This document shows positions 1-37,492 of a DNA stretch of 64,000 nt, one piece after another. The notes beneath the pieces are model-generated. The model had not been told where the DNA came from. It saw nothing but the letters and a program-made list of their open reading frames with translations, and searched no databases. The position numbers and the translations under genes were made by a program. Position 1 is the first letter of the stretch. The number at the start of each line of letters is the position of its first letter. The DNA comes from Blasia pusilla (taxonomy: Eukaryota): contig CM114271.1 in the NCBI GenBank assembly GCA_050084515.1, positions 25,420,001 to 25,484,000 on the forward strand. The letters are read 5' to 3'.

Positions 1-3000
1 CTATAGGTAACATAACTCCATTACAGGTGGAAGAAACATAACCTAGTCTTGATATTTCTTTATTCCCAAGATAGGGAAGAGTCAAATAATTTTCAACGAC
101 TTCATGTACACCTTCAACTATTTATCTGGAATAGGGAGATAAATAGGTAATTCAACTCTTGGTGGTACATAAGTAGTTGGGCTGATCGTACAAGAATTCT
201 CAATAACTTCATGGAGTGCATGGTGAGGTAACTCAAGTATTGGTCTTGGCGACATGTAAATATTCTCTGTGGATCCAAGATGAATCTTTAGATTTTCTCC
301 TACCAAGACTACATTTGCATTGGAAGGCTAAAAAAAATTAGCATATTATAAACAATAGACAATAAATGAGCAATGAAAATTTTTTGAGAGGATATAAAAA
401 CTAAGATAGATACCATATGATTTGACTTCGGATAGTCAAAACTAGAGTCAAAATCTCCATATTTGGAGTAGTTGAAAAAGTGTCAAGTACCAAAGGAGGC
501 TCAACTTGATCATGAAGTGCTTTCCTTCTTTTCCTATACTCATAATAGTAGGTCCTCTTTTTTTCTTTGAGAACTTCCATTCTATCCACTTGGTTGTCCA
601 TCCAGAATTTTCTTGGCAACTTAGCTCCTTTCTCTGCCTCGCCCTCCTATGGCATGGCTCTTGTTCAACGTCTCCGCCCTCACTTTCTGCCTCAGCAATT
701 TTCCCTTGCATTCTTGATTTTCCTTTGGTTTTTTGCTCCTCTTTGGTATGTTGTTTCTGATCAGGTTGTGCATGATGTCTCCTAGGTGGGTAGGGCTTTA
801 GAACGCACGCTATCATTGCGGCTTGCATTGAGGTTTCTGATTAGGTTATGAACAATGGATCCAGATGGGTAGGGCTCTCGTGCACACGTGAGCTTCTTGG
901 TGCCTTCTGCAGAAGCCGGGTCTTTATTCATATGGGGTTCATCTTTTTTTCCTTGTTGGAATCCAATGGCTCAGCAGTAGGGATGTGAGTACTATTTTTT
1001 TAGGCCCGTGGTTGTTGTGCTTGTTAGGCCTGTGGCTGCACATTTTGTAAGGGCCGAGTATGCATATTCTAAAAGAGCCACGGCTGCACATTCAGTAAGG
1101 GCAGCAACTGCTCTTTTTTAAGCCTACGGCTGCACATTTTGTAAGGGCCGTTGCTGCACATTGTGTAACGGCAAGGACTGCCCTTTGTAGGATGTGGTCT
1201 CTTCCCTTCCCCCTTACTTCCACGGTAGAGGTGGATGCAACGTCCTTGAATGGCATAATGGTTGAGTCTTTTCTTATCTCAGAGTACTCGAGTTGAGTAC
1301 TTCTCGATTGGGAGAGGAAATCTGGTAGTTAGATGTAGACACAGATATACATAGTTCCAAAGCAAAGCTTTATGCCCCTAATAAGCATTGTCTAAGTCGC
1401 TTTACATATTGCTTAAGTTGCCTACTCTTCTCCTAATCCAAACATTAGAGCATAAAATTAATGTTGACTATCACATCCTTATGCTTTTGCCCCCCTTGAG
1501 TGGACCTTACAATCACATGTGGATGTGGGGTAGAATTGATTGGCATCCTCATGAACCCCTTTCAGACAATGAGCAATAATCCTGGACATTGGGTTGAGGT
1601 GTCTTCAAACGTTTCTTCATAGATCCAGCTTGCAATGTGTGCGCTCTTTTGTTGTTGGGAGTTTGAAGGTGATACTCAAGGTTTCCTCTTTCCAAGCCCT
1701 CAATTGGCTTTGGAAAGTTTTCTTTATCTGAAAATGTGGGCTCTCTCAAAGCTGGGAGAGAATCCTTTATGGCATTCTCGAAGCATGGGGCATGTTCAGA
1801 GTTGAGCTTTGTCCCCCAAGGAGGGCTTACACCAAAATGTGACTTCCTCCATTTACTCAGCCACATGCAATCCTCTTGAGATATGGGAGACCACTTGGAA
1901 CTCTTGAGTTCTTAGGGATCGAGACTCTTTACACCATAATACTTCTTTGAAGTATCTTTGTCGACACTCTTTCCTTCCCCTACATCAATTTTTTGTTGTT
2001 TTTTTGGTTTCCATGGTATTTTTGCACACTTGATTGGTATGTTGGTTTGTTGTATGAATGTTTGCAGAGATGGAAGGTGGAGTTCTCACGGGAGCAAGAG
2101 AGAGGAGCTTCGAGAGCTAAACCTCAACTAATACAAATCAAGAGCTACTGGAGATGACTTCCAAATTGTTCTTCTTGATCACATGAACTGCAATTGGAAG
2201 ACTTCTTGAAATTGGACACAGCAACGGGGAGCTGCTTAGAATGCCGATTGCAACCGGGACTTTGTTTTCTGTGGAGAACCTGCATGCACAAAGCATAAAG
2301 TAGAATCGTTAGAGTAGATCTTGATAGCGCCTAGTACATAATGCTTAATCGTAAGAGTAGAGTTGGATCTTACCTAGACTATTCCACGTACTACTAGTGA
2401 TCCCATGCAAATCTGAGCACACAAAGACAAATAAAGCTACGCATTAACTCTCAATGGTGAATTGGTTGAGTGTGCACTGAGCTCTCACTGTATCTGATTG
2501 GAGTTTTTAAATTTGGAAAATGTATAAATACAATGGTCGGGAGGCTTAGAACAACCCTTCAAGGAGAACAACATCTTGATAATCTGATGTCTCTCCTCAC
2601 AATTGTAACGTCCTCTAAGACAAAATTTGAATATACGGCTATAAAAACACCATTGAAAAAAGGCATTGAAACCCTAAAATTTCCTTGTAATAATGTGAAG
2701 GGTACCAAAAGCCCTAAACACAGGCGATCAAAAGCCCTAAACGCGATAGCTTCCTCGAGTGGCTGAAAATGCCACGTGTCACACTCTAGAGTGTTTGCAA
2801 AATCAGAAGGCACTCTCCCTTCATAGTATGGATAAAGGGTTGGAAATGTTATGCGAAGCGCCTCCCTCTAAGCCTTCATGGGGAGGTTAGAGTGTCGGAG
2901 AGTTGAGATTCCTCGTGAGATGCAGATTTGCCATGGCGAACAAGACTAGTGCGATAATTTTATTCATCTTACCTCACTCGATGGCAAGCGTGGCGATTAG

Positions 3001-3161
3001 CCTTTCATTATGGTCTGAGGAGGAGAATTTTTGAATATTTTTTCTTCGGAGGATTATTCTCCATTTTGTAACTTCCATCCTTTTCCAACTTTAGACCATA
3101 ATAATATTAAGCAACTTTGGGATTTACTTGTTGGGCAAAATTGTTTTTGCTTAATCACGCA

Positions 3162-3190
3162 CTAGTAAGAATGCCCGTGCAAGGCACCTT
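3162..3190 (-). mobile_element. Helitron 3' terminus (hairpin + CTAG) on minus strand
   Basis: Reverse complement reads GGTGCCTTGCACGGGCATTCTTA-CTAG-T: a short GTGC/GCAC hairpin upstream of CTAG, followed by T. It resembles the 3' end of the mini-Helitron at 3311-3459. 5' end not located. Confidence 0.5.
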
Positions 3191-3310
3191 GTCATAATTT
3201 ATCAAGTAAAATGAATGGTATTCTCGCTTATAACTTATTTAATACATAATGGATGTAAAATCTTTCTTCTACCAATGTTGATCAATTGTTTTCCATCCAA
3301 GGATATTATA

Positions 3311-3459
3311 TCTATATAATTAAAAGAGGACAGGGTTTGAGGAAACCCTCATCAGGTGTTAATTCAACTTCCTCTCTCACTTTGAGAGAGGAAGTTGAAT
3401 TAAGGAGAGATAATAAAGAAAATTAAGTATCACCCGTGCATAGCACGTTCACCGCCTAG
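3311..3459 (+). mobile_element. 149-bp non-autonomous mini-Helitron
   Basis: Inserted between A(3310) and T(3460). Starts TCTATATAATTAAAA, ends with a CGTGCATAGCACG hairpin followed by CTAG, no TSD. Contains a perfect 21-bp internal inverted repeat (3359-3403). Confidence 0.75.
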
Positions 3460-3699
3460 TATATTGTTGAAAGACTTTCTTCCTTCCAAATTTTATGCTC
3501 TCAAATGAGTTTCACTATCAAATTTCTTTTAAGATTGCTATTAATAATTAATAAAATAAGAGCTCATAAAATATGTAAAATTATACTAAAACATAGTCAC
3601 TAGAAAACAAAGTGGATATGAAATTTTCCAAATTATAATTTTTATTTAATTTGATATAACATCTCATTATATACAACATGTATATGATAAACACCATCT

Positions 3700-4620
3700 T
3701 CTTCTTTTTTTGGATTTTGACTATCAATCATCATATGAATGGAATTCTTAGAACCTCTTCTTAAGTCTAGAGATGACAATATCTAACTCTTGTGGGATAT
3801 GCAAAAACTACAACAAAGCCATATCCCATGATCATACCATGGTGTGGTAGCTCACAAAAAAGATCCATGCTGACTTGTTCCTATCTTTTATGAGATTTTG
3901 GAGTGGGTTATTAAAATCTTGTTGGTTTTATGTTACTAGCCTTGATTTTTTTGAAAAATCATATAACTCCTTACATATGCGTCAACATTTGCTTTTATTT
4001 TGGGCCAATAGCATGTCCGTTGTAATGCCTCTAAGATTTTTTCAACTCCCACATGTTCTGCGATAATTTTTAAGTGGGCCTCGAACAATGCTTTAGTGCA
4101 TAAGTCTAGATCTTGTGGGATCCATACTTGATCATTATGGAAAAATACTTTACCATTATGGAAAATCCATCCTTGTTCTTATGTCCTTTCTTAGCCCAAA
4201 TAACATTCGTAACTTCTTCATCCTATTTTTTTGCTTTAGTGAACATTTTCTTCTAACTAGAGTGAATTTGCATGGTAACTTCAAACATGCTATTTTTCAA
4301 TGGCAAATAAGTCAAGGTGTTTGCCAATTTCTTTCCTTTGACATAGATAATGTTGATGGCAAACTATTGTTATCATTGTGTCCATCAAAATTGGTGTTTG
4401 GAGAGCTCTTTTAAGGATTCTAAGTTGACCAAGGCCTTATGCTCAATCTCGATCATGAACTCCTCATCGCCCAAATCTTGTTTCCAATGTTTGGTTGCCA
4501 ATTGCAATACGATAGTTCTTCTCTTTTGGTTATGTGATAATTTTCTTAAGAAACCAACAACACAAGGGAAAAGAAAAGAATCAGATGTCATCCATCCTTA
4601 TATTCTTGTTGTAATACTCC
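3700..4620 (-). pseudogene. Degenerate Ty3/gypsy RNase H-integrase relic
   Basis: ORF 4385-4591 (IVLQLATKHWKQDLGDEEFMIEIEHKALVNLESLKELSKHQF) resembles the gypsy RNase H C-terminus (ALKxWRHYLxGxxFxIxTDHxSL...Q.RW). Heavily broken; limits approximate. Confidence 0.5.
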
Positions 4621-5099
4621 TCAAATGGTAATACTTGATAAATCTGTGGCTAACTTGATAAGTCGATTAGGATCATTCCTCAAGATGCATTGCTTAGTTC
4701 AAACCTAAAACACGGCCAATACGCATCACAATCAGTTTGTGGTTTAAGGGCTTGAGCAAATGGAGAAGGAGGGTTTTCCCTCCTATAGATACCTGCATGA
4801 TTCTCCAAGGGAGTCCCACCTTCCTCATTTTTCCCCTTGAGCCTATGATTTTGACCCTCAACCCAAACGTGATTTACAACTAGCTGACCAACGTTTGACT
4901 AGTTATCCATCAAGATGGCTTGGCAGAGGCTTCTACAACTTCTGCAACTTTTGACTTTCCAAATGCATCTTGGACCTCTAAAGTGCGTTTCATAAATCTG
5001 ATGACATGCGCCCATCTTGAATTCTAGTTTGGGGACTCATAGTTGTCTTTGTTTCCTTTATGTTTCATGACTAGTCTTATGGCGTATCGCCAATCTTGA

Positions 5100-6722
5100 C
5101 TACTTTAGTGTTCCTTACTTCTCCCTCCCGACTTTGGAATCCAATGTAAGTCTTCCGCCTGCAAAGCTCAAGGTTGAATTTTCTTCAGGTTGAAGCTAAG
5201 TAAATTAGTTTGTAAACTCTTGAGAAATTCTTTCTAAATTACCCAAGGTCCTAAATCCATGATTGGCAATGGCTGCAACTGTGGAGTTTGAGCATTGAAT
5301 GATGTCCGGACCCAATCACACACCATGCACCTAGCAACAAACTACTGAACATAAGTTTGCATGCCTTGCCACCAATACTATATCTTGAGCAAGGTGTATT
5401 TTCGCTTCATTCCAAAATGATCCATTTCCTCGTGAGCATTCAATACCAAATGTGCTCTCTACAAAAGGATGAGGCACTACATGTTCTCTACCATCCTCCC
5501 AAATTCACTACACATGAATCCCCTCCCACCAAAACTGTCTCGCTTGCTGTAGGATCCGATCCCCCTCTCTAGCATCTACTGTGCTCATAAGGCTGCTAAT
5601 GCACAAGTACTCCAAGACTATTTCATCCTCCTGAATATCTCAACCATCTATCACCTTCTTACCGACCTCTAGATCTACCAACTCTCCATGAGATCTCTCC
5701 ATCAAAGTCTCAACAATCTGGCTCTCCATAACCAACAAGCCCAAATAGACCGACGTGTGCCATCTTGGTTGAGCATCCAAAGTCTATGTACCACTTGGAA
5801 ATCATACTCTTGCAACAATAAAGCCCACTTTGCAAGCTTTACTATAAGCTTTTTGGACTCCATCAACCATTTAAGTGTTTGATGATCAGTGACGATGGTA
5901 AAGGGATTGCCGAATAAATAACACTTGAAATACGTGACAACTCACACTGTAGCCAGACACTCACCCTCATATGAGCTATACTTCTCCCCTGCAATATTTT
6001 TAGAGCAACTAGCATAAGCCACCACAAAATCTCTACCCTCATCTTCATATTGGGTGACCACCGCTCCAAGTCCCAACATACTCCAATCAGTATGTAACTA
6101 GAAAGGATCCCCCTTGATCGATCTCCTTCGTATGGGCGTAGACGTCAAGTTATCTTTGAGCAATTGAAATGCTCTCTCTTCCTCATCCCCCAAGTACCAT
6201 TCGTGATCCACCTTGGTCAGCAAGGTTGATTCCTTTGCAATCAAACTAAAACCCTTGACGTACCGACGATAAAAGTTTTCCAATCCCATGAATGCATGAA
6301 TTCGACTCACATCTGTAGGATGTGGAATATGTGAGATAGCCTATACCTTCATCTATTGAATACGAAGGCCATCTGGGTATATTGGATGAATCAAGTGCTC
6401 AATTTGGTCATAGAAGAACTTGCACTTGCCTTGATGTACCTTCAGCCCATGTAACCGTGATCGTCGAAACACCTCCTCTTGATGTCGCTCATGCTCCTAA
6501 ACCGTGGTGCTAAAGAGTGCCATGTCATGAATATATCACCTAGCAAAATCCAAACCGTCAAAATCCTTTCCATGAGCCTCTGAAACTTTTTTCGGGTGTT
6601 CTTTAACCTAAATGCTAAGAACCGCCACTAGTACAAACAATCCTTGCCGTGAGGATTGATGCCCCAAAATGACGTTTTCTGCCTTTCTCCAATCTGATAG
6701 GCACTTACTTGATAGTATCAAG
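5100..6722 (-). pseudogene. Degenerate Ty3/gypsy pol (RT-RNase H-integrase), close relative of the 22629-27406 element; split by copia A, last piece at ~11998-12020
   Basis: SRIHAFMGLENFYRRYVKGFSLIAK...EERAFQLLKDNLTSTPI parallels SRVRAFLGLANFYRRYVKGFSAIEK...QERAFQKLKEKLTSSPI in ORF 24903-25487. The LDLxxGYxQ RT motif is rejoined when copia A is removed. Left limit approximate. Confidence 0.8.
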
Positions 6723-7032
6723 TATTGAAGATTGAGTTACATTCAAACTCATGAAACACTTGAATTGCTACATTTGGTACTCACACAAAGTAGGAAAGGT
6801 TAATCTTGGTTAGTCACTTAAGCGCGATTATCTTAAATAGGATTAATTAATCACAGTTAATCTAACTCGAGACTGGTTAAGGTTAGGCTTAGGGTTGCTT
6901 TTACATACTTTATATAATTGAGAAGGGGATTAGCCTCCTCTCATTCTCTCATTGCAAATTTTGTTGTACATGGTGATGTGTGAGTGTGAGAGCCGTTTCC
7001 TACCAATTATGCTTCTTTAGCAGTTTTTCACA
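6723..7032 (+). repeat. copia A 5' LTR (TA...CA)
   Basis: Direct repeat of 11686-11997; followed by the PBS. Confidence 0.9.
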
Positions 7033-10000
7033 TAATATCAGAGCGATAAGAGAACATCATTTGAAATTCTTGGTGTTTGAGGAGAGAAGAGAAGCAAGAG
7101 AAGGCACAATTTTAGTTTGGGAGAAGGAAATTTCATTCAAAGCTCAGTGGATGCACATTTCAGGTGGAGCCTTAACAATAAATAAGACTTTGGAGGCATT
7201 TTTTAGGGCTTTTCCGATCGATTTAGCCATCTGGATCCGCAACGGCTAGAATGATGCCAAAGTCTGGTACCAATTATCTTGTAGAGCTTGTCGAGAGTTT
7301 TCCAACACATCCAAAATTTCTCAATTTTGATATTTTAAGCTCTTGCAGTAGCAATTTTAGTGTAAGAAAATACAATAAGTGAAGAAAAATTGTACAGTTT
7401 GCTCTCTACACGGCATTCGACTAGTTCATATAGTGGAAAATTTCAAGTCAATTTCTATGTAGGAGTGGTCTATGCTTCAATTAGAGTAGAGGAGAGCTTG
7501 AAATTATGTTTTTGTAAGTGAAATCGTTCGTCATGGAGTATTCCTCAACAACAATCATAGACGAAGCTAGATAAGAAAAATTTTAATGTCTAGAAGTTTC
7601 GCATGAAATAACTTCTCATGTGTCAAGAACTATGGGAGCTTGTCACAGGTGATAAGGGCAAACAAGAAGTCTCTGACTCAACAGACTTGAATGTTCACGC
7701 TTGAAACAAACGCGCGAGGCAAGTAATCCACTATATTTCAATAACAATCAATTTGCCAATGACAAGTCACGTTCAAGATGTTGATACTCCAAAGAAGGCC
7801 TCGGATGCATTGGAAAAGTTGTTATAGGCATCTACAAAGGGCAAAATTTTCAATTGAAATAGCAATTGAACGAAGTGAGGAAAGGATTGCAGAGCATAAA
7901 TGATTATATTTTGAGTATCAAACATATTATTGATCAATTGAATAGCATTGGAGTGATAGTACAAGATGATGATCTGATTTTTTTCACTCTTCAAGGCCTT
8001 CCAAAGGATTATAAATCCTTTGAGACCTCTATATCTATGAGAGAGAAGTATCCAACCTTTCAAGAGTTAGTTCCACCGTTAATCAATGAAGAGATGCGCC
8101 TAGTAGACAACGGTAGCTCGTCTAGTGTGCAAGAGAGTACGCTATTTGCAAGTTATGGATCAAACAGAGGCAGAGATTAGGGCAAAAGCTTCCGTGGTAA
8201 TTGTGGATATCAAGCATATGGAGGAAGAGACACTCAATATAACGTCACTCAATCAACTACGAACCACTACCAGATACAATCACAAGATGATGATCGTGGA
8301 AACCGTTGGGATCGAGGTCAACAATAGAGGGTCCATGGATTGTAATTACTTTGGGATAAAGAATCACTAAGCAAAGTTTTGCTTCAAGAAGAAGATAGTT
8401 ATGAGAATAGGAGCCTCACAGCAATAAAACCATGTGGAGCAACAATACCAAGGACAATACCAAGAACAACAACATTCACAAACGGAGCATCTTTTGGTCA
8501 TGACTCATGATATGGGAGCAATGGTGAAGAAAGATTCGACAGCAAATTGGTATATTGACTGTGGTGCATCAAATCACATGACCTCACAAGCTAAATGGTT
8601 CAGTAGTTTAGATCTAGTGAAAGATCTTGCAATTGTGCTCACAAGAGATGACACTCAACATCATATCACGTATATCAATAAAGTTCCAATAGCATCAGAT
8701 GGTCTTTGTGCTCTTGGAAATATTCTTTATGTTCCTACCATTGCAAGAAACTTGATATATGTAGGATAGATAGTAGAATAGGGTTATTAAGTCAAGTTTA
8801 ACACAGATAATTATTTCATTGAAACAATCGATGACAGATTTACGATAGCCAAAGGAACTAGATATGATAGAATGTTCAAATTAGATGTTTCTATGCTTGA
8901 GATTCAAACAACAATGTATGGTCAAACTGGCCAATAAGTCACAGATCTAAATGTGTGGCATAAGAGAATTGGACATATGAATCTTCAAAGATTATAGAGT
9001 CTTTTATCATCTAATATAGTAATAGGACTTCCTAAATTAGCAATTCATATTATGTTAGAGATATATCTTCCTTGCCAATTTGGAAAACAAGCTAGATTTC
9101 CTTTTCCAAAGCAAGGCAGAAGAGCATCCAAGATATTGGAGTTGATTCACAATGATGTGAGAACAACATCACAACATAGCCTTAGTGGTTGCCAGTACTT
9201 TGTTTCATTTATTGATGACTTCTCTAGGTATATATGGGTATACTTTCTATAATCCAAGTTAGAGGTATTCTTAGTGTTCCAAATATTCAAAGTTCTAGTA
9301 GAGAAGCACACTAGAGATCACATTCTGAAATTGCGTTGTGATGGAGGAGGAGAGTATCTTTCAACACACTTTGATGACTATTTACGTCAGAATGGCATCC
9401 AACTTTAAGTAACTTGCCGTTACATTCCACAACAAAATGGAGTGGCTGAGAGGAAGAATTGACATATTGTTGAAGCAGCACGAGCTATGCTGAATGAGAA
9501 GAACATGCCTAAGGTGTATTGGGCAGAGGCTGTAGCGTGTGCAATCTTCTTAATCAACCGAACTCCAATAGCATGAGTTCTTGATAAGACTCCATTCAAA
9601 GTCTTCACAGGAATTAAACCTAATTTTTCCTTCGTGAAAGTATTTGGTTGTATTTGTTATGCTTATGTTCCTTGTAAAAGACGTCAGAAATTAGACCTCA
9701 AATATGAAAGATGTATATTCATTGGCTACGCTGATGGAACTAAGGGGTATAAGTGCTACATTCCATCTTCTCTGCAAATTATTATTAGTCACATTGTTGT
9801 CTTTCATGAACTAAAGTCATGATATGCTCCATCTAAGCCTATTCCTCCTCTAAGCTCCTCCGTTAAGGGGGAGAATATGACTATAAACCAACAGAAATTG
9901 CCTTCAAATTCCCCAAGTACTAGTATAAGATTAGGGGAGGTCCTAGATTCGTGAGTCAAACCTGTAAGTCCAAGACAAAAAGAGTACGTATTCAATCTGT

Positions 10001-21700: not shown

Positions 21701-22950
21701 TTCTCTATCTCTAGGCTCCTAGGGGCTTGGGGTTTGTTGGCTATGGATAAGACTCCTTTAGGTGTCTTCCATATGGCTATTGGAGAGGTTTTATACCGCT
21801 TGGTTAGTCGATCCTTATGCTTGCAATTTCGTCCTCACTTTAGTGCCCACTTATTTCCTCATTAATTTGGAGTGGCAACTCCTGATGGTTTTGAGGCTAT
21901 GGTGCATGGGATTCGCTCCACTTTTAATATTCATCCTGAATGGATAGCAATTCAAGTCGATGTGGCTAACACATTCAATTCACTTTCTCGTACGACCATC
22001 TTTGAGGAGTAATATTATGCAAGAGGAGTTACGTTATGCATGAGGACAACTTGCGAGTCTCATTCCATTTTTTTGCTCCTTCTATGCCTATGATACGCCC
22101 ATTATCTATTCTCATCATGCTACTTCCCGGGAATATAGTATTCTCCAATCGGCTTGTTGCACGTGTCAAGGTGATACCATGGATGGCCCGCTCTTTGCCA
22201 TTGCCCATTTTCGTGCCCTTTGAGTATCAACGCAAGCACTTCCATCTTGTCTTTTCCCTTCTATTGCTAATGACACTCACATTATAGGTCCTCCTTCTGA
22301 AGTGGTTCTTGCTTATACCCATTTCGTAGAGCAACTCTCTTTCTTAAACCGTAAAGTCCAACCTATTAAATGTGGAGTATGGTCTCCTTCATGCCTTCCC
22401 TCAACATTCATCCCGCCTACTCTTGAATTTCCTATCTACATTGAAGGGTTTAGGGTTCTTCAAGTCCCAATTGGCTTCATCGACTATGTCTCAAAGTTCT
22501 TGGATGAGATCCTTTTGAAAGACGTGGAATGGTCTAATTTTTTACCTCATCTAGGGGATCCCCAAGTGGCTTATGGGATTCTCTCCCAATATTTTACGAC
22601 ATCCTTCCTACCTTCTTCGAACTTGTCCTGTCACATCTGAGTAGTCGATAGGCCAAGATCTATCGTGGATAGGGCGTAGGAGCCAACGGACTATCTTGAG
22701 TGTAACTTTGTCCCACGGTGTCATATAAGGTTGAGGATAGGTCTATTGTGCCAGGAACGTCGTTTCTGACAACTTTCATGTTGAGGTCTTTCACAGCCCG
22801 GTGACTTGTTGACCAGGTCACCCGCCCCTGGTAACGTGTGCGCGCAGGTTATCAAGGAGAGGGCTATTTTTAGGGGAAGAGCCTTTTGGCTCTTTCCAAC
22901 CCTATATAAGAGAGGAAGGTGGCTTTCCTAGGCCATCTTTCCTCAGCCAT

Positions 22951-23810
22951 CAGTACCTTTATGTGGAGAGAGATGAGACCGCGCGGCGAGTATCATTACG
23001 TTACGTGGCGAGATTGGTCTAGAGGTATCTTGAGTTGTTGCCGATATCTGTAGTACGGGGATATCAACATACACTACCTGCCGACATCTCTTTGGTGGGG
23101 GCGCAGGATCTGGATAGAGTTTGCACCATTCATTTGGTGATTCTTGGATGGTCATGTCAGGGTCATTCATCAGCTAGCCGAGGATTTGGATTGCAGGATC
23201 CGAGGTCAGGGATGTTTTGGGAGATGCTGCGAGTAGTACGACACTTGCAGGAGAGTCAGACATGTTCTCCAACGTACATTTTGGAGAACGTGCCATTGTT
23301 GGGAGACACTCGTGCACGTGTGATGACGAGTGTGCATCAGGTGAGGTCCTGGTTGGGACCTGCTGTATTGCTAAATGCGGCGAGAGTTGGATCACGTGCC
23401 CATCGTCCACGACTGTGGTGGACAAACCTGATACCATCAGAGGTACTAAGTCGAGCATATGATGGAGTCCAAAGAGCACCACATCTCATAGTGGATGCTA
23501 TTTTGGGCTCACGGCGTCAATCTCAGGTGGTGACACGGGATGATAGACCACCGTTGGCCATGGCCAATAGGATGGGGGAGTTGAGGGCAGCCTTACCTAC
23601 GTTGGTGAGCTTCCCAAAATCCGATGCCTTTCATCAGGGAGGGCCAAGCATGATTTGGGATGAGGTGACCGGAGCATTGGAGGAGCCTACAGCAGATGAG
23701 CGCTAGTGCGCCATGGGGTTCGCTACCGGTACTACGGCGGTGCCAGGGATGACTGAGGCATCCCGGAGACAGTTGTTGGGGATGGACCTCAATTGTCTCA
23801 CATGGATAGT
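22951..23810 (+). pseudogene. C5-cytosine DNA methyltransferase catalytic domain (DNMT3-like), retrotransposon-encoded, lacking motif I
   Basis: One frame: motif II YLYVERDETARRV; III DI; IV LVILGWSCQGHS (PC->SC); V GLQDPRSGMFWE; VI YILENV; VIII NAARVGSRAHRPRLWWTNL (cf. DNMT3A DAKEVSAAHRARYFWGNL); IX/X EPTADER*CAMGFATGTT...SRRQLLGMDL (cf. DNMT3A EMERVFGFPVHYT...ARQRLLG). Two in-frame TAG stops. Confidence 0.9.
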
Positions 23811-24129
23811 TAGCCTAGGTATGGCTGAGCATAGACGGATGCGAGTGTCATCCATGCCATCACGTCCACGAGTTGGACCATTGCCTACAGGGTCTGTTCA
23901 CGCATTGGCTGGGGGCGAGACGAGGAGAGATAGGCACTCATGGACTTCCTGGGACGTCGTTCGAGCGTAGAGTGGGAAGGCGGCTAGAGTAGCACATGTT
24001 CATTTTTCGGATGTGGAGCATGGTGTAGGAGGTCAGAGTGGAGTGGCTCTTGCGGAGGTGGCTAGGGTTGCTACATAGCAACCAAAGCCGGAGGTTGTGT
24101 CCTCTCCGAGTGAGGTCACGATGGAGACT

Positions 24130-27043
24130 TGGGAGCCTGTGATAGGTCTCAAGTTGATAGGAGGAGAGCGACGGCGAGTTCATAGGTTTCTGAGAGGGCA
24201 TGTCACTTGTTTTGCCTTCAATATGAGAGACTTGGGCACGCTGAAGGGTCCCGGGATACGGATTGAGTTGGCTAGTGATACAACGATCTTTCATCGACCT
24301 TGCAGGTATTCTGATATGGAGCAAGCCTTGATTCAGAGCAGGAGTTAGGACTTGTTGGAGGCAGGACTTGTAGAGTTATCACATGGGGAGTATGCATATG
24401 CCACAGTCATGCCGGCGAAGAAGGATATGTATGGCAATTGGACGGATAGGCGGATGTGTGGAGATTACCGTCCTATCAACCGACATACGAGGTCAGATCG
24501 GTACGCCATGCCTATTCTTGAGGAGATCTTTGATGCGGTAGGGCATGCAAAGAGCTTCAGTACTTTAGATCTTCGTGTTGGCTATCATCAGCTTCCTATC
24601 AGGTTGGTGGATAGGGAGAAGACAACATTCTGGGGATAGATCAGTTCGGGAGAGATTGCTTGTATCAGTGGAGGTTCTTACCATTTGGGTTGAAGAACGC
24701 GCCTGCAGAGTTTCAGAGAGTGATGGATAGGATTCTAGCTGGCTTGGATTTTGTATGATGTTACATAGATGATATTCTTATCTTCAGTTCCATGGTTGAG
24801 GAGCATGAACGACACTTGGAAGAGGTGTTTCAGCGATTGCAATTACATGGACTGAAGTAACATCCACGCAAGTGCAGATTCTTTCAAGAGCAGATTGAGT
24901 ACTTGGGACACACCATATACCCGAGTAGGTTAGACGTTCAGCGGACGAAGGTAGAGGCTATTGCGCAGATTCCACGCCCTACAGATGTGAGTCGAGTCCG
25001 AGCATTTCTTGGACTGGCAAACTTCTATCGACGGTATGTCAAGGGTTTTAGTGCGATCGAAAAGTATTTGACCTTGTTGACGAGACTTGATCAGGTTTGG
25101 TTGTGGGGAGATGATCAAGAGCGAGCATTTCAGAAGCTCAAGGAAAAATTGACGTCCTCACCCATTTTACAGAGATCGGTTAGGGGTCGCCCATTCCAGT
25201 TACATACGGATTGGAGCATGTTGGGTCTAGGAACAGTGCTTACTCAGAGGGATGATAAGGAGAGGGAGTTCATTGTGGCTTACGCGAGCCGTTCAAACAA
25301 CATTGCAGAGGCAAAGTACAGCTCCTATGAGGGAGAATGCTTGGCTGCAGTGTGGGCCGTGGCACATTTTAGGTGCTATTTATTCGGAAACCCTTTCACA
25401 CTTATCACTGATCATCAGCCGTTGAGGTGGTTGATGGAGTCCGACAAGCTTATAGGAAAGCTTGCCAGGTGGGCTCTATTACTATAGGAGTATGAGTTTG
25501 AGGTGGTTCATAGGCCTGGTCGGCTGAACCAGGATGCAGATGGATTGAGTCGTAACCCATGTCCGAGTCAGAGAGACGACACAGGAGCTTGATGGCACGG
25601 AGAGAGTGATGAGGAGATGGTGCTCGGTTGGCATGCATCTGCCTATCTTTGTTGGTTGACTATGGCAGGTCAGCCACAGGTGATGATTCTAGTGGTGGGG
25701 TTGGATGATGAGTCTTTGGATCCAAAGGTCAGTGTGGTCGTGATATCCATGACGACGTGGAGGTTGTGGAGTTCTTGCGCACTGGCGTCATAGCGAGCAC
25801 AGTGAGTGCTAGGGAGCGGGATCGGATCCTACATAGAGCCAGAAGGTTCATGTGGGAGGGGACTCACATTTTGCGGGTATGGGGAGATGGTAGGATATGA
25901 GTGGTACCTCATCCTTCCCAGAGAGCACGTGTAGTGCGACATGCCCATGAGGAGTTGGGACATTTTGGAGTAAAGCGTACTTATAGCTTATTCCAGGTTC
26001 AGTATTGGTGGCGCGGCATGCATACTGGGGTACAGTAGTTTGTGGCCAGATGTATGGTATGTGACAGGATGCGAGCATCCTTCAATCCTCCCACTCCGCA
26101 GTTACTTCCTTTGCCGATTATGGGTTTAGGTTATCGGTGGAGTTTAGACTTTGCGGGACCTTTGCCATTGACGGGGCGTCATCATAGGTATGTTTTGGTC
26201 ATGGTGGAGCATTTCTCCAAGTGGATAGAGTTTGTGGCACTACCGGACAAGGCGAGCGAGGAAACAGCTTATGCATTTCTAGATCGTGTGCTTAGTCACT
26301 TTGGTGCACCGACGGAGGTGTTGACTGACTAGGGTACTGAGGTCAGGGGAGAGTTTTCAGGCCTTGTGTGATCAGGCGCTGATAGATCACCGCACCACGT
26401 CTAGAGATCATCCTGAGGCGGATGGGTTGGCGGAGAGAGTGGTATAGACGGTGAAGAGAGGATTGCGCAAGTATGGCTTGTGCAGGGACACTTGAGGGAG
26501 TGGGACCTACAGTTGCCATGGTTGGCTATGGGTTATCGCTTTAGTCGGCACGCATCCTTGGCGTCATTTTCACCGTACTTTTTGCTCTTTGGGAGAGAGC
26601 CACATTTACCTGGAGCGATTTGACATGACATGGCAGAGGTGTTAGATCTTGATGATCCAGATGTGTGGATACAAGCATGTTCTCAGAGGGTGGAGGTTTT
26701 TCGTAGAGTTATGCCTATGGCCTTTGAGAACTTAGCTATTGCTCAGCATAGAGATACATTGAGGTACGCGACCATTCGTGGAGGAGGTTATCGTCCAAGG
26801 ATTAGGAGGTTTCATCCTGGAGATTACGTGTATTTACAGCAGGCGACACCCACGACGCTAGATCTCACTACAGGGCGCACGATCCTACGTGTGCGCGAGG
26901 TATTACCGATCAGAGTCCTCATGTTGGAGGGACGGGATGGTATGGTTTGGAAGGATCATGTGCGCAATTGTGCGCCATGTCATCTTTCGAACGTAGACGG
27001 GACGGTGGATCCGAGCTTGGCAGTGGTACCTGCAGGCTTAAGG
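24130..27043 (+). pseudogene. Ty3/gypsy pol: RT, RNase H, integrase
   Basis: RT: RMCGDYRPIN, FSTLDLRVGYHQ, LPFGLKNAPAEFQR, CYIDDILIFS. RNase H: LHTDWS, YEGECLAAVWAV, TDHQPL. Integrase: HEELGHFG...CMVC, WSLDFAGP, VEHFSKW, LTD*G. A few frameshifts and stops. Confidence 0.95.
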
Positions 27044-27192
27044 TGTATGTTGTGCGGATCTGTGAGGGGTGCAACCATCATGTTGGTATGTGATGGTTGT
27101 TCTCGAGGGTGGCATATGTCATGTCTGACCCTTCCCCCCCCCCTCTTGATGTGGTTCCCACGGGATGATGGATGTGTCCGAGATGTGTATAG
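27044..27192 (+). pseudogene. PHD finger (C4HC3) at the integrase C-terminus
   Basis: CMLC...MLVCDGCSRGWHMSCLT, then, after a slip in the poly-C run at ~27134-27144, PLDVVPTG*WMCPRCV-stop. All eight Zn ligands and the conserved W are present. Confidence 0.9.
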
Positions 27193-27698
27193 GGTAGTAG
27201 GTCATGTTAGAGAGATATGATATTTTCTATCTGGAGTTGGGAGGATCCAACTGCCAGCTAGGGGGATGGTTGTGTGATCTCCATGTATATGTATGAGTTG
27301 ATTTTTGTACATGTGTGGATCAACCTGTGTGTGGGGAAGATCAGTGTTGTGTGGTGTAGATGTGACCAGCGATATATGTTGTGTAGCGATATGTATGCGC
27401 ACGATAGTCCTTCCACTTCAAGGTTCTTATATCGGTTGGCATCTTTTGACGCTTCTATCTTGGAAAATTTTGGTCAACTTCTTGGCCCGAATAAATTTGA
27501 GGGGGAGGGTGGTATCTTGGCTTCACAACAAACTATCTTGCCTATTTCTTTTAAAGGGGTGGGACTTTCCTCCACAATCACAACTGCTCTTGTAGCCTTT
27601 TTGGAGAGTTGGACGTTGGTAGCACCGATTATGGCTTCAAGGTTTCTCCAAGGAGATACACCTATCTTGATGGATCATGTCGCCCATGTGAAGGAGGG

Positions 27699-28216
27699 TA
27701 TCGCATCTTAGTTTGACGTAGGTAGAGTTCTATCGCGTCGACAGTATAGAGAGTCGGCGGGCTATTTGGATGTAACTTCATCGTGAGATGTCACATGAGG
27801 TTGGCGACAAGTCTGTTGCGTCAGGAACATCATTAATGGAAATTTTCCTATTATGGTTTTAGTCTGTCACCTGACTCGTTGACCGGGTCAATGGTCAATT
27901 GGTAACTTGTGCACTCTTATATCCTTGGGAGAGAGAGAGAGATGGCTTTTCTCAAGCCATCTTTCTCATGTTGAGCCTCAAGAGCGCCTCTCTTGCATAG
28001 ACGTATGTGGGTGTGTAGGAGTTATGGTACTAGCGTCCGAATTCCCTCCTAGCGGAGGGTGGATGGGATTTTATATGCCAATTTAGATTCATGAATGGAG
28101 TTTTAGAGATGTATATGTATGAGTTTGTTTGGTTTATGGATGGATCGACCAGTGTGTTGGGAAGATCAGTGTTGTGTGGTGTGTAGATATGACCAGCGAT
28201 GTGTGTGCGCACGACA
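27699..28216 (+). mobile_element. Solo LTR (or internal-deletion derivative) related to the DNMT-gypsy element
   Basis: TATCGCATC...GCGCACGACA with 4-bp TSD AGGG. The first ~270 nt align with 22629-22945; the last ~110 nt align with 27283-27406. Confidence 0.85.
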
Positions 28217-31200
28217 AGGGGGACGTCTTATTTCAACAACAACTTAGATCTGCCCGAGCTCTTCTTCCTCTTACTACACAAGCAATTCTACTGCCTTTTA
28301 GTCAATTGATTACTAAAGGGCTTGATCGACTTCAAGAGCATATCTCTGAGAACTTGCACCAAGTCATCTTTTCCATCATTCTTTCTTAGGCATCCTCTGA
28401 CTCTCATCAAGCTCTTTTGCGTTCATGTGCAGGAGCCTGGCTTACTGCAAATCCTCTTACTCTTCCATTTCGTCTTCCTCGAAGTATATTCTGGATAGCT
28501 TTGTGGTAAAGCCTTGGATTTCCCCATCCTTCTCTATTAGATGTGCAGAATTTTGTATGCGGGAATCCCATTGTTACCAAGGGTATCCATATTCTCTGAT
28601 TTGCAGAAGGTGGGGAACGAATAGCCACACATGACGTCATTAGAGAGGCGGTAGCATCAGTGGCTCGTACTGCAAGATACACCATTAGGCAAGAGCAGAT
28701 CCATGTTCTATCTTCAACCACACAAGCAACCTCTCGTCGAAGAGTTGTTCTTGTTATGTCTTGAGGTGGATTTCGGACACTAGATGATATGGTGGTTGCT
28801 GATCCAACTCGTTATGACTTGGTGTGTTGAGTTGCACATACCAAAGGTTCGTCGATTGAAGTTGCAACAAGAATCAAGGAGTTAAGTTATATTGTAAGAC
28901 ATGCGACTAATGGATTTATTCCTTTTGCAATGGCAGTATTTGGTCATTTACATGTGTCTTTTGATACTTTCCTGAAAATATGTGCTCACCACTCCCTCAA
29001 GAATCATCACCTTGCCCCTTCCACAAAACCTAAGCACTCTTCACACACCTCTGCACGACATATCAATGCCAAGGCACATACCACACAACCAAGTCTATCT
29101 CGCAGACCTTTTTGACCATTTGTCGGCAACGCATCCACTCATCTGGGGATACAAGGACAAAATATAGTAAGGTGTTGGCTTGTATGTAGGTGTTGGAGAT
29201 TTCTTCAACTTTTGATTGTATCGTTTCATATATATGAGTTATGACGTCGATGCATCACATGACCTACAAATCTTACTACTATTGTATAAAACCTTTAACC
29301 TAGTTGAAATGTTGCAACAAGATCTATAACTCGTATAATGAAGCTGTAAGGAATGGTAAAAAACTCAAAAGTCTGTTCCTAATAACTTGAGTGGCGCCAA
29401 GACCAAGGTACTTTTGTTGGCAGTTTAGGCTATATGAGATTTTTGTGTGAAGAGTGCCTAGGATCTAGTCTTTGGCCTAAGCCAGTCAGTTAAACAAAGG
29501 TCAAGTTGAGGATGCACATATTTATGACTTCTCAAAGGTGTCTTCGTGAGAAGTCTCGTGGCTGTTCGGGAAAACTATATTAGAAATTCTCATAACTTTG
29601 TAACGGGAGATTGGTAATCAATCTATGAGGCCTTGGGTTTCAATGGGAAACACATAATTATGGCGTTTCATTTCGAGGTCTAACCTCTTCACCTAAAATC
29701 TTTTCCATCATGCATATTTATTGAGGTTCATCATTTCTATTTTAAAATTAGGATGGAAGATTTATGAGACTTAATATTGTCCACTTGACGCTCAGGCATC
29801 TCATAATTGACACACATCAAGATTGATTCAAGGCGAAGCAATCGGGCGGGATCGAGTAGATTACCAACGCGTTGGGAGAAAGTGCGGCTCGAGATAGGAT
29901 CAGGATCACCAATGGTGGATGGAGAAGATCCGGGGTTGCCAATAATCGTAGCCGATTGAAATTAGAAATTTCCCTTTCACTTAAAATTGATCGGGAAAAA
30001 ACTAGCAAGATCTTCTTTTTCAACTCTCATCTTGAGATCCCCTCTTTAGTCAACTCAAAGCACTCATCATAAGTGAAGTGCTTAAAATATCCTAAAATAC
30101 AAACAACAATTAATATCAAAAAACCTCTTATGTCCATCTAACGCTTGGATGTTGGGTTAAACACTCTCTTCTTGACTCTGGCATTTACTTCTCATGTCTT
30201 ACCTCCCTTATGATCATGCCTTCACTTCTTTGTGTACCTAGAGACCACGATTTTGTCTCTTCATCGAGCCTAGCATAATTGAGATAGCGTAAAGTGAGCA
30301 AGGTTTTCAGTATATGAAGACTCGCCTTAAATACCTCCAATATATTGAGACACCCTAGGCCTTGAACACTTCACTGACCATCTCTCAAAGGCATTTTTGG
30401 GCTTAGTTTCTCTAACGTAAGGCTTTGAAGTTTGCACATGTGCCCACCTTTCCTGTGCTCAGAGGAGCGTGGGCATTTTCTATTGAAGACTGAGTTAGAG
30501 TCAAGCTCCTCGGACATCCAAATTTTTATATTTAGTACTCACACGAAGTAGGGAAGCTTAATCTTGGTTAATCATTTAAACGTGATTATCTTAACTATGG
30601 TTAATTAATCACAGTTAGTTTAACTCAAGACTCTGGTTAGGATTAGGGTTACGGTTGCTTCTACATACCCTGCATAATTGAGAAAAGGACCAACCTCCTC
30701 TTATTCTCTTATTGTAAAATTTTGTTTTCCATGATGGTATGTGAGTGTGAGTCATTTCCCACCAGTTATGCTTCTTTAGCAATTTTCTGCATGATATCAG
30801 AGCGACAGGAGAACATCACTTGAAATTCTTCATATTTGAGGAGAGAAGGGAGGAAAGAGAAGGCACAATTTCAACTTGGGAGGAGGAAATCTTATTTAGA
30901 GCCCAATGGCAGAAGATTTCAGGTAGAGTTGTGACGATGATAAAACTTTGGAGGCATTTTTTAGGGATTTATCGATTGGATTAGAAATCTAGATACGTGG
31001 TTTCAATTAACTTGTAGGGCTCGTTGAGAGCTTTCTGACACGTCCAAAATCGCTTGATTGTGACATTGTGAGCTCTTGCAGCAATAATTTAAGTGCAGGA
31101 AAGTGCAATTAGTGAATGAAAGTTATGGAGTTTGCTCTCTATAGGCCAATTTTGACTAGTTCTTCCATAGAGTTGATCAATTTGGAAATTTTTTGGTCAA

Positions 31201-35010: not shown

Positions 35011-37492
35011 TGCAAAAAACTGCTAAAGAAGCATAACTGGTGGGAAACGGCTCTCACACACACACACCACCATTGACAATAAATTTTACAATGAGAGAAT
35101 GAGTGGAGGTTGTTCCTCTTCTCAATTATATAGGGTATGTACAAGCAACCCTAACCCTAATCCTAACCATAGTCTCGAATTATACTAACTATAACTAACT
35201 AATCCTAGTTAAGATAATCATGCTTAACCGACTAACCAAGATTAAGCTTACCTACTTCGTGTGAGTACCAAATATAGGAGTTCAGGTGTCTCATGAGCTT
35301 GACTGTAACTCAATCTTCAATATTTCCCCTGAAGCTCATATCGATATCTCCAACGTCTAAATCATTTGTAAAGATCTCAAACTTATCTCTAGACAATAAC
35401 TTTGTAAAGATTTCAGCAATTTGCTGATCTGTACTTATATACACAAGATCAATTTCTCCTGCAAGCACTTTCTCTCTGATAAAATGATAGTGCACCTCAA
35501 TATGCATTGTATTAGCATGAAACACAGGGTTATTAGAAAGCTTGATGCTACTAATATTGTCTACATATATTACACTAGGTCCTAAGTTACTAACACCAAT
35601 CTCAACAAATAATTGATGAAGCCACACCGCCTCACATGCTGCATTGGTTGCTCCTCTGTACTCAGCCTCTGTTGAAGATAAAATAATTGTAGGTTGCTTC
35701 TTTGAAGCCCATCTTACAGCTGAGCTTCCCAAAGTAAATAAATAACCAGATGTGGAGTGTCGATCAAACACGCTTCCTGCCCAATCAGCATCTATGAATC
35801 TCATAATTGAAAACTCGGAGGAGGTTCAAATTGAAGTCCGAATTGAATAGAGAATTTCACATATCGCATAATCCTCCTCACAGCATCAAGGTGAGGTTTT
35901 TGAGTTGCTTACGCAAATTGGCTCACTAGGCCAACAACATAACTAAAATCTAGTCTGGTTATAGTTAGATAGATCAAACTTCCAACCATGCGCCTGTACA
36001 TATTAGAATCTACAAGCAACTCTCCTTCATCCTCTCTTAGCTTCACACTTTGGTCCAACGGTGTAGAGATTGGCTTACAAGCCGTCATACCATATTTTGA
36101 AATGAGATGAAGAGCACATTGTCATTATAGTAACCAAATGCTCTCTCTAACCTTGATAAACTCAATACCAATGAAGTACTTGAGTTCTCCCAAGTCTTTC
36201 ATATCAAATTCTACTTGTAATTTAAGTTTGACTTGTACTATTTCTTCAATACTGCCAATAATCAGGAGATTATTAACATACAACACAATGAGAACTGTAT
36301 GATCTTGTCCTCTCAAGACATATAACGAGGAGTCAAAATCACATATCCTAAAACCCAACTCTTGTAAGACATATGTAATCTTGCCATTCCAAATTCTTGG
36401 AGCTTGTTTGAGCCCGTATAAAGCTTTCTTCAACCTGCATATGCGAAATAAAAACTTGGGATGCTCGTATCCAGGTGGTTGAGTCATATATACCTCCTCG
36501 TATAGATCTCTATTCAAGAAGGCATTCTTGACGTCCATGTGATGTAATCTCCACTTCTTACTTACTGCAACTACAACCACTGTTCTCGTCGTCGCCATCT
36601 TTGCAACATGGCTAAATGTTTCCTCATAATCGATGTCATATTGTTGTGCATAGCCCTTAGCCATCAATCTCGCTTTGTATTTGTTAATTGTACCATCTTG
36701 ATTGCGCTCATTTTGTAAACCCATTTGCAACCAATAGCTTCCTTATCGGAAGGTATATCAACAAGATCCCATGTTTGTTGATATCTTAATGCAACAAGCT
36801 CTTCCTCCTTAGATTCAATCCATTCGATTTTACTTGCAGCTTCTTCAAAATACTCGGCTCCTATTCTTGAAGGTTAGTCATCATATATGCATGATGTGTA
36901 GCAAGGAAACCTTCATTTATGAATCTATGAAGTGGATGTGTAACTCTACTTGATCTACGAAGTTGTTGTTCAGAAGTAGATGCCTCTAACACTTGACTCG
37001 AGCTTTGACTAGTGTCAACAGACTGAATATGTACTCTTCCCGTCCATGGACTCACAGATTTAATTGGTGAATCCAGGTCCTCTCCTATTCCTGCACTAGT
37101 ACTGGAGGAAGTTGAAGGCAATGTTTTTTGGTTTACAATCATATTCTCCTCCTCAACAGACGAGTTTAGAAGTGGAATAGGCTCAAATGGAGCATGTCAT
37201 GACTTAAGCTCATCAAAGACAACATCGCGAGTAATAATAAGTTGCCTAGAGGATGGAATGTAGCACTTATATCCCTTAGTTCCATCAGTATAGCCAAGGA
37301 AGATACATCTTTCAGACTTGGGGTCTAATTTCTAACGTCTTTCAGAACGAACATGAGCATAACAACTACAGCCAAATACTTTCAAGAAGGAGAAATCAAG
37401 TTTACTTCCTGTGAAGACTTCGAATGGAGTTTTATCATGAACTCATGTTGTTGGAGTTCGGTTGATTAAGAAGAGTGCACATGCTACAACCC
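35011..37492 (-). mobile_element. Inverted 3' half of a third copia copy (copia C: partial integrase, RT, RNase H, 3' LTR 35011-35322)
   Basis: ORFs 36125-36730 (YKARLMAKGYAQ, MDVKNAFL, LKKALYGLKQAPR) and 35310-35804 (DADWAGSVFDRHST). LTR is the reverse-complement homolog of the copia A/B LTRs. Confidence 0.92.

Follow-up and report, generated by a model that had tools for sequence, protein, structure and literature searches.

Here we describe a short cysteine-rich stretch within 64,000 nucleotides of Blasia pusilla DNA (contig CM114271.1 of assembly GCA_050084515.1, positions 25,420,001 to 25,484,000 of the forward strand; the whole stretch is referred to as the window throughout). Window positions 27044-27192 are the decayed C-terminal PHD finger of a Ty3/gypsy-type integrase. 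The element copy around the finger is a dead, 5'-truncated fragment of a Ty3/gypsy element of the 'Gypsy-DNMT3' kind, which carries a C5 cytosine DNA methyltransferase (DNMT) in addition to the usual pol domains. Beyond this one copy, the PHD finger has been conserved and kept by selection as a module of a large clade of Ty3/gypsy elements from the green lineage, in which the finger is universal and the methyltransferase nearly universal. As the best overall explanation we propose, with moderate confidence, that the window holds the remnant of a Gypsy-DNMT3-type integrase whose PHD finger would act in active copies as a chromatin tether.

The decayed finger and the element copy around it

An open frame of 198 codons starting at 26624 leads from the integrase C-terminal region into the finger and reads ...LRCMLCGSVRGATIMLVCDGCSRGWHMSCLTLPPP. 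A run of ten C residues at 27134-27143 then shifts the reading of the finger from the frame starting at 26624 to the frame starting at 26626, which continues past the poly-C run with PLDVVPTG, a TGA stop codon (27166-27168), WMCPRCV and a TAG stop codon (27190-27192). The first Cys codon begins at position 27044 and the stop codon ends at position 27192, so that the limits assigned to the finger in an earlier sequence-only reading of this DNA were exact. The zinc ligands are spaced C-x2-C-x11-C-x2-C-x4-H-x2-C-(about 14-16)-C-x2-C. For profile searches, the broken finger was read through with X at the poly-C run and at the TGA (code 1,TGA=X,CCCC=X). Residues 141-187 of the resulting protein (P0002) matched the Pfam family PF00628 over the complete profile (1-47 of 47) with 36.8 bits against a curated cut-off of 24 (E = 3.8e-09). 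The solved PHD fingers of KDM5A/B, DPF3 and PHF21A also matched the window finger, the lowest E value being 2.1e-09 (KDM5A/B). The unshifted frame (P0001) aligned with an intact integrase-PHD protein (P0003) at 80% identity over 86% of the length (E = 9.7e-89).

The sequence-only reading had claimed a C4HC3 finger that ends pol after the integrase and is damaged by one poly-C frameshift and one stop. Translation and the Pfam score bear out such a finger on the plus strand, and the account of its damage is correct for the finger itself; the remainder of the copy is far more damaged. The same reading had likened the position of the finger to that of a chromodomain, and the finger does follow directly on the integrase C-terminal domain, where chromoviruses have their chromodomain. 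A Pfam scan of the C-terminal protein of the window at E values up to 0.1 returned PHD-type families only and neither an ADD nor a Chromo family; no Chromo family was found in the 21 relatives scanned either. A chance cysteine pattern was considered as well and is ruled out by the PF00628 score together with the similarity to the intact integrase-PHD protein.

Two observations concern the decay of such fingers. The TGA of the window falls on a variable position at which close relatives carry Arg or Trp, and in four decayed relatives (P0008, P0012, P0019 and P0026) a Tyr replaces one of the Cys ligands. Both kinds of change fit transition-type decay of silenced copies.

The Ty3/gypsy copy extends over about 22940-27404 on the plus strand and comprises DNMT, reverse transcriptase (RT), RNase H, integrase and PHD finger in this order. 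Using intact relatives as queries, tblastn traced one colinear element from 22939 to 27181, along residues 25-1512 of P0024, a protein of 1516 residues with the same order of domains, and nucleotide similarity to related loci detected by blastn spans 22952 to 27404. The start of the copy corresponds to residue 902 of a Marchantia gag-DNMT model and lies just past DNMT motif I. Its 5'-truncated methyltransferase region (22939..24075, +) was recognized by PF00145, tblastn and motif alignment: PF00145 scored 27.6 bits against a cut-off of 22 at 23023-23706, and residues 902-1261 of P0126 aligned with 22939-24024 at 62% identity. Motif IV reads SCQ, where relatives have PCQ, the ENV and AHRxR motifs are present, and in-frame stops occur at 23020, 23704 and 23968. 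This region is colinear and in the same frame as the RT, in agreement with the claim of the sequence-only reading that a DNA methyltransferase belongs to the same element. The DNMTs closest to the window piece are found in gene models from Marchantia, Calypogeia, Sphagnum and Closterium, some of which are fused to RT and RNase H. The label Dnmt3 for the enzyme is taken from PMC5890265.

RT and RNase H occupy 24115..25640 (+); the frame changes near 24636, and stops interrupt it at 24346, 24756, 24858, 25485 and 25590. The Pfam match to RVT_1 is weak (16.7 bits, 24349-24639) and that to RT_RNaseH reaches 111.3 bits (24861-25487), and tblastn gave 61-71% identity to P0009 and P0127 in this region. 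The zinc-binding region and catalytic core of the integrase follow at 25742..26623 (+), with 39.6 bits for Pfam rve on 26039-26332, 59% identity to residues 549-1015 of P0009 (tblastn) and in-frame stops at 25898, 26036, 26330, 26369, 26402, 26414 and 26621. The open frame at 26624..27043 (+) then encodes the integrase C-terminal domain, consisting of a helical stretch and a small beta domain, and a short linker to the PHD finger. Downstream of the finger, blastn revealed a 3' non-coding tail of the element at 27193..27404 (+), the end of which (27367-27404) matches a region about 240-700 nt downstream of the finger in five related loci (L021, L025, L053, L072 and L010). By tblastn, the frame changes not only near 24636 but also between about 25640 and 25742, the segment 26355-26480 aligns in another frame, and the main alignments contain 16 distinct in-frame stops from 22939 to 26621, the family's own TAG at 24076 counted in.

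No long direct repeat was found to flank the element as long terminal repeats (LTRs), either in a repeat search of 12000-34000 (seed 14) or in a blastn self-comparison. Gag and protease are not present in the window copy, whose start lies inside the DNMT; one relative (P0164) has gag CCHC, protease, DNMT, RT, RNase H and integrase in a single open reading frame (ORF). In both the window and its relatives, the Pfam matches follow the order RT, RNase H and integrase that, along with the H2C2 zinc domain and DDE core, is characteristic of Ty3/gypsy elements, and a C5 DNA methyltransferase lies inside the Gypsy coding region, as in Gypsy-DNMT3 elements. Because the window copy is a 5'-truncated relic with many stops, nothing in it functions.

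Further observations were made around this copy. Open frames at 22224-22640 and about 27400-27711 (+) were read by eye as consecutive parts of a reverse transcriptase of the long interspersed element (LINE) type, which suggests that the Gypsy fragment sits inside an older LINE. A second Gypsy fragment at 5249-6701 (-) comprises RT, RNase H and the start of an integrase and has about 72% nucleotide identity to 24595-25536 and 25767-26130; it ends before the integrase C-terminus, and no PHD finger is preserved in it.

Conservation of the finger and its pairing with a methyltransferase

A search with the unshifted C-terminal frame yielded 155 longer proteins at E values up to 0.001, 120 of which were listed. 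Precomputed assignments of PF00628 and integrase families are present in 117 of these 120 relatives; in the remaining three, the sequence stops within the finger or before reaching it. The strict C4HC3 pattern is found in 107 of the 120; several of the failures have a Tyr in place of a Cys, and others end before or inside the finger. When the domains were mapped by phmmer with segments cut from P0024 and P0063, a PHD finger was present in every one of the 101 relatives whose sequence goes on for 55 residues or more behind the integrase C-terminal domain. The outcome that the sequence-only reading had named as fatal to its proposal, intact copies ending at the integrase without a PHD finger, did not occur among these 101 proteins. 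A host exon captured beside the element had also been considered as the source of the finger; this is ruled out by the colinearity of integrase and finger in all relatives extending far enough.

Among the named matches listed, identity to the integrase-PHD region of the window amounts to 76-79% for Marchantia polymorpha, 72% for Calypogeia fissa, 65% for Sphagnum fallax, 47-49% for Klebsormidium nitens, 47-51% for Pleodorina, Volvox and Tetrabaena, and 43-45% for Chromochloris; the nearest of these relatives point to a liverwort as the probable host. Streptophyte-like members have the finger no more than 13 residues from the stop, as in the window; chlorophyte-like members continue for a further 100-460 residues, to which no Pfam domain was assigned. 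All aligned members (24/24 and 21/21) share the eight zinc ligands and the Trp preceding the seventh of them. The median ratio of nonsynonymous to synonymous substitutions (dN/dS, Nei-Gojobori), computed for the 45 codons of the finger, is 0.34 in 134 pairs and, without the eight ligand codons, 0.46, with 158 of 164 pairs below 1; these values are biased downwards by a set picked for intact fingers, and many copies are dead relics. In an integrase tree of 121 rows (quick IQ-TREE run, midpoint root, SH-aLRT support), 118 rows have the finger.

The sequence-only reading had asked how DNMT and PHD finger co-occur across the family, and the answer is strongly positive. With the window DNMT piece as query, phmmer found 1067 proteins at E values up to 0.001, from which the best 150, many of them pol-length, were taken. 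A complete integrase C-terminal domain is present in 38 of these best 150; 35 extend past it, and 34 of the 35 carry the PHD finger. Altogether, DNMT and finger occur together in 63 of the 269 proteins examined. Among 80 metagenome loci retrieved for a check on DNA, 26 include 3.7 kb or more of sequence upstream of the integrase core, and a DNMT was found in 23 of these 26, the exceptions being L003, L007 and L074. A direct search for the DNMT is needed for such counts: the precomputed Pfam table flags it in merely 2 of the 120 listed proteins, misses most of the chlorophyte-type ones and is misleading in this respect. One Klebsormidium-like metagenome locus (L042) contains a DNMT fragment, RT, RNase H, integrase and finger in order. 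A side observation concerns P0142, a protein of 455 residues labelled as stemming from a metagenome-assembled genome of Candidatus Obscuribacterales, which is 47% identical to the window DNMT piece over its full length; it may derive from transposon DNA of a eukaryote that was assigned to a bacterial genome by binning, or may hint at the origin of the DNMT.

The methyltransferase occupies one of two places. In type A elements the order is gag(CCHC)-protease-DNMT-RT-RNase H-integrase-PHD, as in P0164, P0024, P0086, P0096 and the window. In type B, the majority form, which includes the named volvocine proteins, the order is RT-RNase H-DNMT-integrase-PHD-tail (P0053, P0063, P0074, P0097, P0162, P0188 and P0217). 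PF00145 was confirmed at 25.6-42.5 bits in the type B proteins P0162, P0188, P0217 and P0184, and the DNMTs of both types share the homologous motifs I, IV, VI and VIII. Three type B loci, L058 (4860-11408), L061 (2-4732) and L077 (6118-11838), have a single intact ORF running through DNMT, integrase and an intact PHD finger. In the integrase tree, a streptophyte-like group unites all type A rows with proteins whose ORFs start about 100 residues before the RT, and a second group of 81 rows is nearly all type B. Within the latter, a clade formed by P0110, P0081 and P0060 (support 99) has kept the finger and lacks the DNMT that its relatives carry between RNase H and integrase; in P0110, none was found in the 622 residues upstream of the RT either. 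This subclade rules out that the finger is limited to DNMT-bearing elements. Wherever the DNMT is placed, the finger stays fused to the integrase, about 1,000 residues away from it.

The DNMT and RT parts of the window copy lie in the same frame and are separated by an in-frame TAG followed by CAA CCA (24076..24084, +), a candidate leaky stop. UAG followed by CAR-YYA is the leaky context of the tobamovirus type. When the frames of related loci were followed codon by codon, a conserved stop was seen at the same place: TAG CAG TTA in L015 (5083-5091), TAG CAA TCA in L011 (4661-4669), TAG CAA CC[C/T] in L004 (1767), L008 (8044), L009 (8044), L024 (1470), L030 (5335), L031 (5604) and L072 (8041), and TAA CAA CCC in L075 (8041). 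In L015 the ORFs 976..5085 and 5086..8229, and in L011 the ORFs 2477..4663 and 4664..7807, abut in one frame with a single stop between them; in both loci the upstream ORF is the gag-protease-DNMT part and the downstream ORF the RT-RNase H-integrase-PHD part. The conserved stop also accounts for the many predicted proteins that start about 100 residues before the RT and for the Marchantia gag-DNMT models that end about 17 residues after the DNMT alignment. The strict TAG-CAR-YYA pattern is present in only 3 of 21 type A cases, and a blastn comparison of the stop region with the loci gave no match. P0024 and P0164 have no stop at this position, so the arrangement varies. Judged from its context and conservation, the TAG of the bryophyte copies is probably a site of programmed stop-codon read-through. 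In the liverwort/moss-like branch, the DNMT would then sit in an abundant upstream product and the PHD finger in the read-through product only. The sequence-only reading had spoken of reader and writer in one polyprotein: both domains do belong to one element, but with the TAG between them the liverwort/moss-like copies would join them only as a read-through product.

Reader class of the finger and its possible roles

Over 139 members of the family, the spacing of the zinc ligands is nearly fixed at C-x2-C-x11-C-x2-C-x4-H-x2-C-x14-C-x2-C. Conserved features are MLL before and Asp after the third ligand, a Gly-Trp or Gly-Tyr pair in front of the His, L-x-P-P-L behind ligand six and G-x-W ahead of ligand seven; the Trp two residues before the seventh ligand is found in 133 of the 139 and also in the window (WMCPRC). 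Two positions ahead of the His ligand, 125 members have Gly, 11 Ala, 2 Pro and 1 Leu; no member has an aromatic residue there, and the window has Gly (SRGWH). We take this position to be that of the cage Trp in ING and BPTF, which read histone H3 trimethylated at lysine 4 (H3K4me3). Conserved aromatic residues of the family finger are limited to two, the immediate neighbour of the His on its N-terminal side and the structural Trp preceding the seventh ligand, and an aromatic cage with a Trp two before the His, as in H3K4me3 cage readers, is not formed by this set.

When the family profile was compared with the Protein Data Bank (PDB), 123 matches were obtained. The best 60 of the 123 comprise fingers of KMT2C/D, CHD4/5, WSTF, KDM5A/B/D/Lid, ATXR5, DPF2/3, KAT6A/B, BAZ2A/B, EHD3, PHF21A, PHF12, the Schizosaccharomyces pombe Clr6-complex protein Cph2, ORC1B, UHRF1/2, AIRE and PHF10; ING, BPTF, TAF3 and PHF2/8 are not among them. 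Proteins of the class that reads the unmodified H3 tail (BHC80, AIRE, KDM5 PHD1, BAZ2A/B, ATXR5 and UHRF1) were matched with E values of 1e-16 to 1e-24. The predicted structures point in the same direction. An AlphaFold2 model of the finger alone, taken from an intact relative, has a mean pLDDT of 83.8, and in the model of P0003 (391 residues) beta strands at 270-321 and a linker at 323-337 with pLDDT below 50 precede the finger at about 340-391, which is modelled in blocks of pLDDT 68-88. On intact relatives, the PHD fold is supported by Z scores of 8.2-9.0 to solved PHD fingers over 50-56 residues, values of 8-9 being only at the level that the tool considers trustworthy for a domain of 56 residues. 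The structural neighbours include the PHD fingers of BAZ2B (Z 9.0), BAZ2A (Z 8.9, root mean square deviation 1.9, 54 aligned residues; entry title 'in complex with unmodified H3K4 histone peptide') and ATXR5 with histone H3 (Z 8.9), furthermore UHRF1, ORC1b and TRIM66 with unmodified H3, BHC80, and the tandem fingers of DPF3 and MOZ with H3K14 acyl peptides; these histone states were taken in part from entry titles. By sequence and predicted structure, the family finger groups with the readers of the unmodified H3 tail, such as BAZ2A, ATXR5, KDM5 PHD1, BHC80 and UHRF1, and not with the H3K4me3 cage readers.

Many PHD fingers read H3K4me3, and the finger could in principle recognize this or another active mark and steer integration to promoters or active chromatin. 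One structural neighbour (rank 28), a UHRF1 PHD entry with an H3K4me3 peptide, would be in line with such a role. However, the lack of cage-type readers among the best 60 PDB matches and the prevalence of Gly two before the His speak against it, as does the preference of a PHD-bearing Gypsy element of Chlamydomonas for intergenic DNA (PMC9940879), and we consider it very unlikely. A second alternative is that the finger binds a non-histone partner, be it a host protein, DNA or proteins of the element, and serves nuclear import, stability or assembly. UHRF1 PHD neighbours solved with PAF15 or Stella would be compatible with this, as would the additional 100-460 residues behind the finger in chlorophyte-type members. 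Against it stand the closest solved relatives, which are overwhelmingly H3-tail binders, and a position of the domain that equals that of the chromovirus targeting domain. We regard a non-histone partner as improbable, if less so than an active mark.

By analogy with the chromovirus chromodomain, the most likely function of the finger is that of an integration tether. In active copies, the PHD finger would tether the complex of integrase and cDNA to nucleosomes whose H3 tail is unmethylated at lysine 4 (H3K4me0), insertion would thereby be biased away from active promoters, and the finger would do the job of the chromodomain by means of a different reader. The DNMT would act separately, in liverwort/moss-like copies upstream of the UAG as part of the gag-protease product, and its role may be the methylation of the element's own DNA, as proposed by de Mendoza et al. 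Several points weigh against tethering to H3K4me0. We infer the ligand of the finger and its effect on target choice solely from similarity to solved PHD fingers; some of these neighbours bind other ligands, namely H3K14 acyl marks (via a tandem finger), PAF15 and Stella; and the qualifications given above for the dN/dS values, the Z scores and the histone states count here, too. Finally, pure tethering does not require the near-universal coupling to a DNMT, which could mean that the two domains cooperate.

Such cooperation might take the form known from DNMT3A/3L and their ADD domain: the finger would sense H3K4me0 and license or position the Dnmt3-like enzyme of the element, which would then methylate the newly inserted copy or the DNA around it, acting as part of a read-through polyprotein left unprocessed or in the pre-integration complex. 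Unmodified H3 is the state read by the ADD domain of DNMT3, and the finger falls into the same reader class. The co-inheritance counts given above are in favor of such coupling, and the pairing was kept through both domain orders, with DNMT motifs that are homologous across the two. On the other hand, the finger always resides on the integrase and never adjoins the DNMT, the conserved in-frame TAG lies between DNMT and RT-integrase-PHD in liverwort/moss-like copies, and protease processing would be expected from general retroelement biology to part the integrase from the domains upstream. Moreover, the finger has been retained in the subclade of P0110, P0081 and P0060, where a DNMT is missing between RNase H and integrase, and it is of the canonical PHD type, not an ADD domain. 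Licensing of the enzyme by the finger thus appears unlikely to us, albeit less so than a non-histone partner. Of the possible convergence on DNMT3 logic put forward in the sequence-only reading, the co-inheritance is strongly supported; the DNMT3/ADD-like coupling is speculative, given a PHD instead of an ADD domain, the fusion to the integrase and the intervening TAG.

A broader version of this idea seems slightly more plausible, though still tentative. Finger and Dnmt3-like DNMT may form a functional unit with which the element picks H3K4-unmethylated chromatin and methylates itself there, as a counterpart in trans of the DNMT3-ADD logic. The pairing would, with the same tentativeness, have been kept for a long time across green algae, charophytes and bryophytes and have survived the relocation or second capture of the DNMT as well as the leaky UAG. 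Tethering of the integrase by the PHD finger remains the reading that we prefer.

Surroundings of the element and comparison with known systems

Apart from the Gypsy and putative LINE remnants, the window contains at 17271-18707 (+) an unbroken frame of 478 codons that matches the whole Pfam PrpF profile with 257.9 bits. With about 49% G+C, its surroundings exceed the 32-44% that mostly prevail in the rest of the window, and the frame may represent a host gene lacking introns. Copies of a dispersed repeat, 300-520 nt in length, are present at 30481-30997, 6723-7239, 11686-11993, 35011-35322 (-) and 42318-42625, with 79-85% identity between them. A unit of 68 nt is duplicated in tandem at 14776-14911 (99% identity) and was the sole direct repeat in the search of 12000-34000; the blastn self-comparison showed, besides dispersed repeats, only a direct repeat of 97 nt with 84% identity downstream of the element (27283-27379 and 28109-28206).

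Gypsy-DNMT3 elements and PHD fingers of transposons have already been published, and the locus itself is an unremarkable dead copy of an element type already on record. Of moderate interest, and open to testing, is the pattern seen across the family: the choice of insertion sites and the coping with host silencing are central questions of genome biology, and a large, easily sampled family in Marchantia, Klebsormidium and volvocine algae combines a histone reader on the integrase with a DNMT that is almost always co-inherited. In the literature searched, the coverage of which is incomplete, we found no description of a clade-wide integrase-PHD fusion, of the order RT-RNase H-DNMT-integrase-PHD or of the UAG.

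The closest described system is KnitGypsy-Dnmt3 of Klebsormidium nitens, Gypsy elements with an intron-less Dnmt3-like domain (PMC5890265). Like these, the window element has a Ty3/gypsy pol that carries a C5 methyltransferase; P0034 and P0040, two proteins of K. nitens, show 47-49% identity to the integrase-PHD region of the window and have the same PHD finger at their end. The word PHD appears neither in the main text of PMC5890265 nor in the one supplement searched as text. Unlike KnitGypsy-Dnmt3, the window copy is truncated and dead, no DIRS-like repeat layout was found for it, and its nearest named relatives, among the matches listed, are liverworts with 72-79% identity. Later papers refer to such elements as streptophyte Gypsy-DNMT3 (10.64898/2026.05.21.726589) or, apparently loosely, as LTR Copia (PMC12344493).

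PHD fingers have been described as common accessory domains of retrotransposons (PMC6673714, PMC8557442, PMC9940879). A PHD-bearing element of Chlamydomonas, Gypsy-7a_cRei, inserted into intergenic sequence at 2.6 times the expected frequency (PMC9940879), and targeted or less harmful insertion has been suggested for it (PMC9940879, PMC8557442). Like the window element, Gypsy-7a_cRei is a Gypsy Gag-Pol with a PHD finger, and volvocine relatives are 47-51% identical to the integrase-PHD region of the window; we liken the two by description only, and the cited parts of PMC9940879 and PMC8557442 mention no DNMT for Gypsy-7a_cRei. Other retrotransposons, too, assemble epigenetic writer and/or reader domains: EpiLTRs and DAM-LTRs combine a DNMT and an adenine methyltransferase with a chromodomain (2026 preprint, 10.64898/2026.05.21.726589), and CopiaMBD carries a methyl-CpG binding domain (PMC6673714). 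The window family shares this habit but differs in having a PHD finger as its reader and in the origin of the methyltransferase and the host lineages.

Chromodomains direct integration (Gao 2008 as cited in PMC6673714), and Chlamyvir, Tcn1 and related clades represent chromodomain clades (PMC3350952, PMC6317226). The PHD finger resembles the chromovirus chromodomain as a small reader of the histone tail at the extreme integrase C-terminus, behind the C-terminal domain, and as a presumed tether. It differs in its zinc fold and in the mark that it is likely to read, the unmodified H3 N-terminus as opposed to H3K9 methylation. If the finger does tether to H3K4-unmethylated chromatin, it would represent a second, independent solution to the problem that chromoviruses have solved with the chromodomain.

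With DNMT3A/DNMT3L and their ADD domain, finally, the element has in common that a Dnmt3-type catalytic domain and a zinc finger of the unmodified-H3 class are joined in one genetic unit. In contrast to these enzymes, its finger is of the canonical PHD type, sits on the integrase and, in this subfamily, is separated from the methyltransferase by an in-frame stop. If it nevertheless cooperates with the DNMT, the transposon would have rebuilt the reader-writer logic of animal DNMT3.

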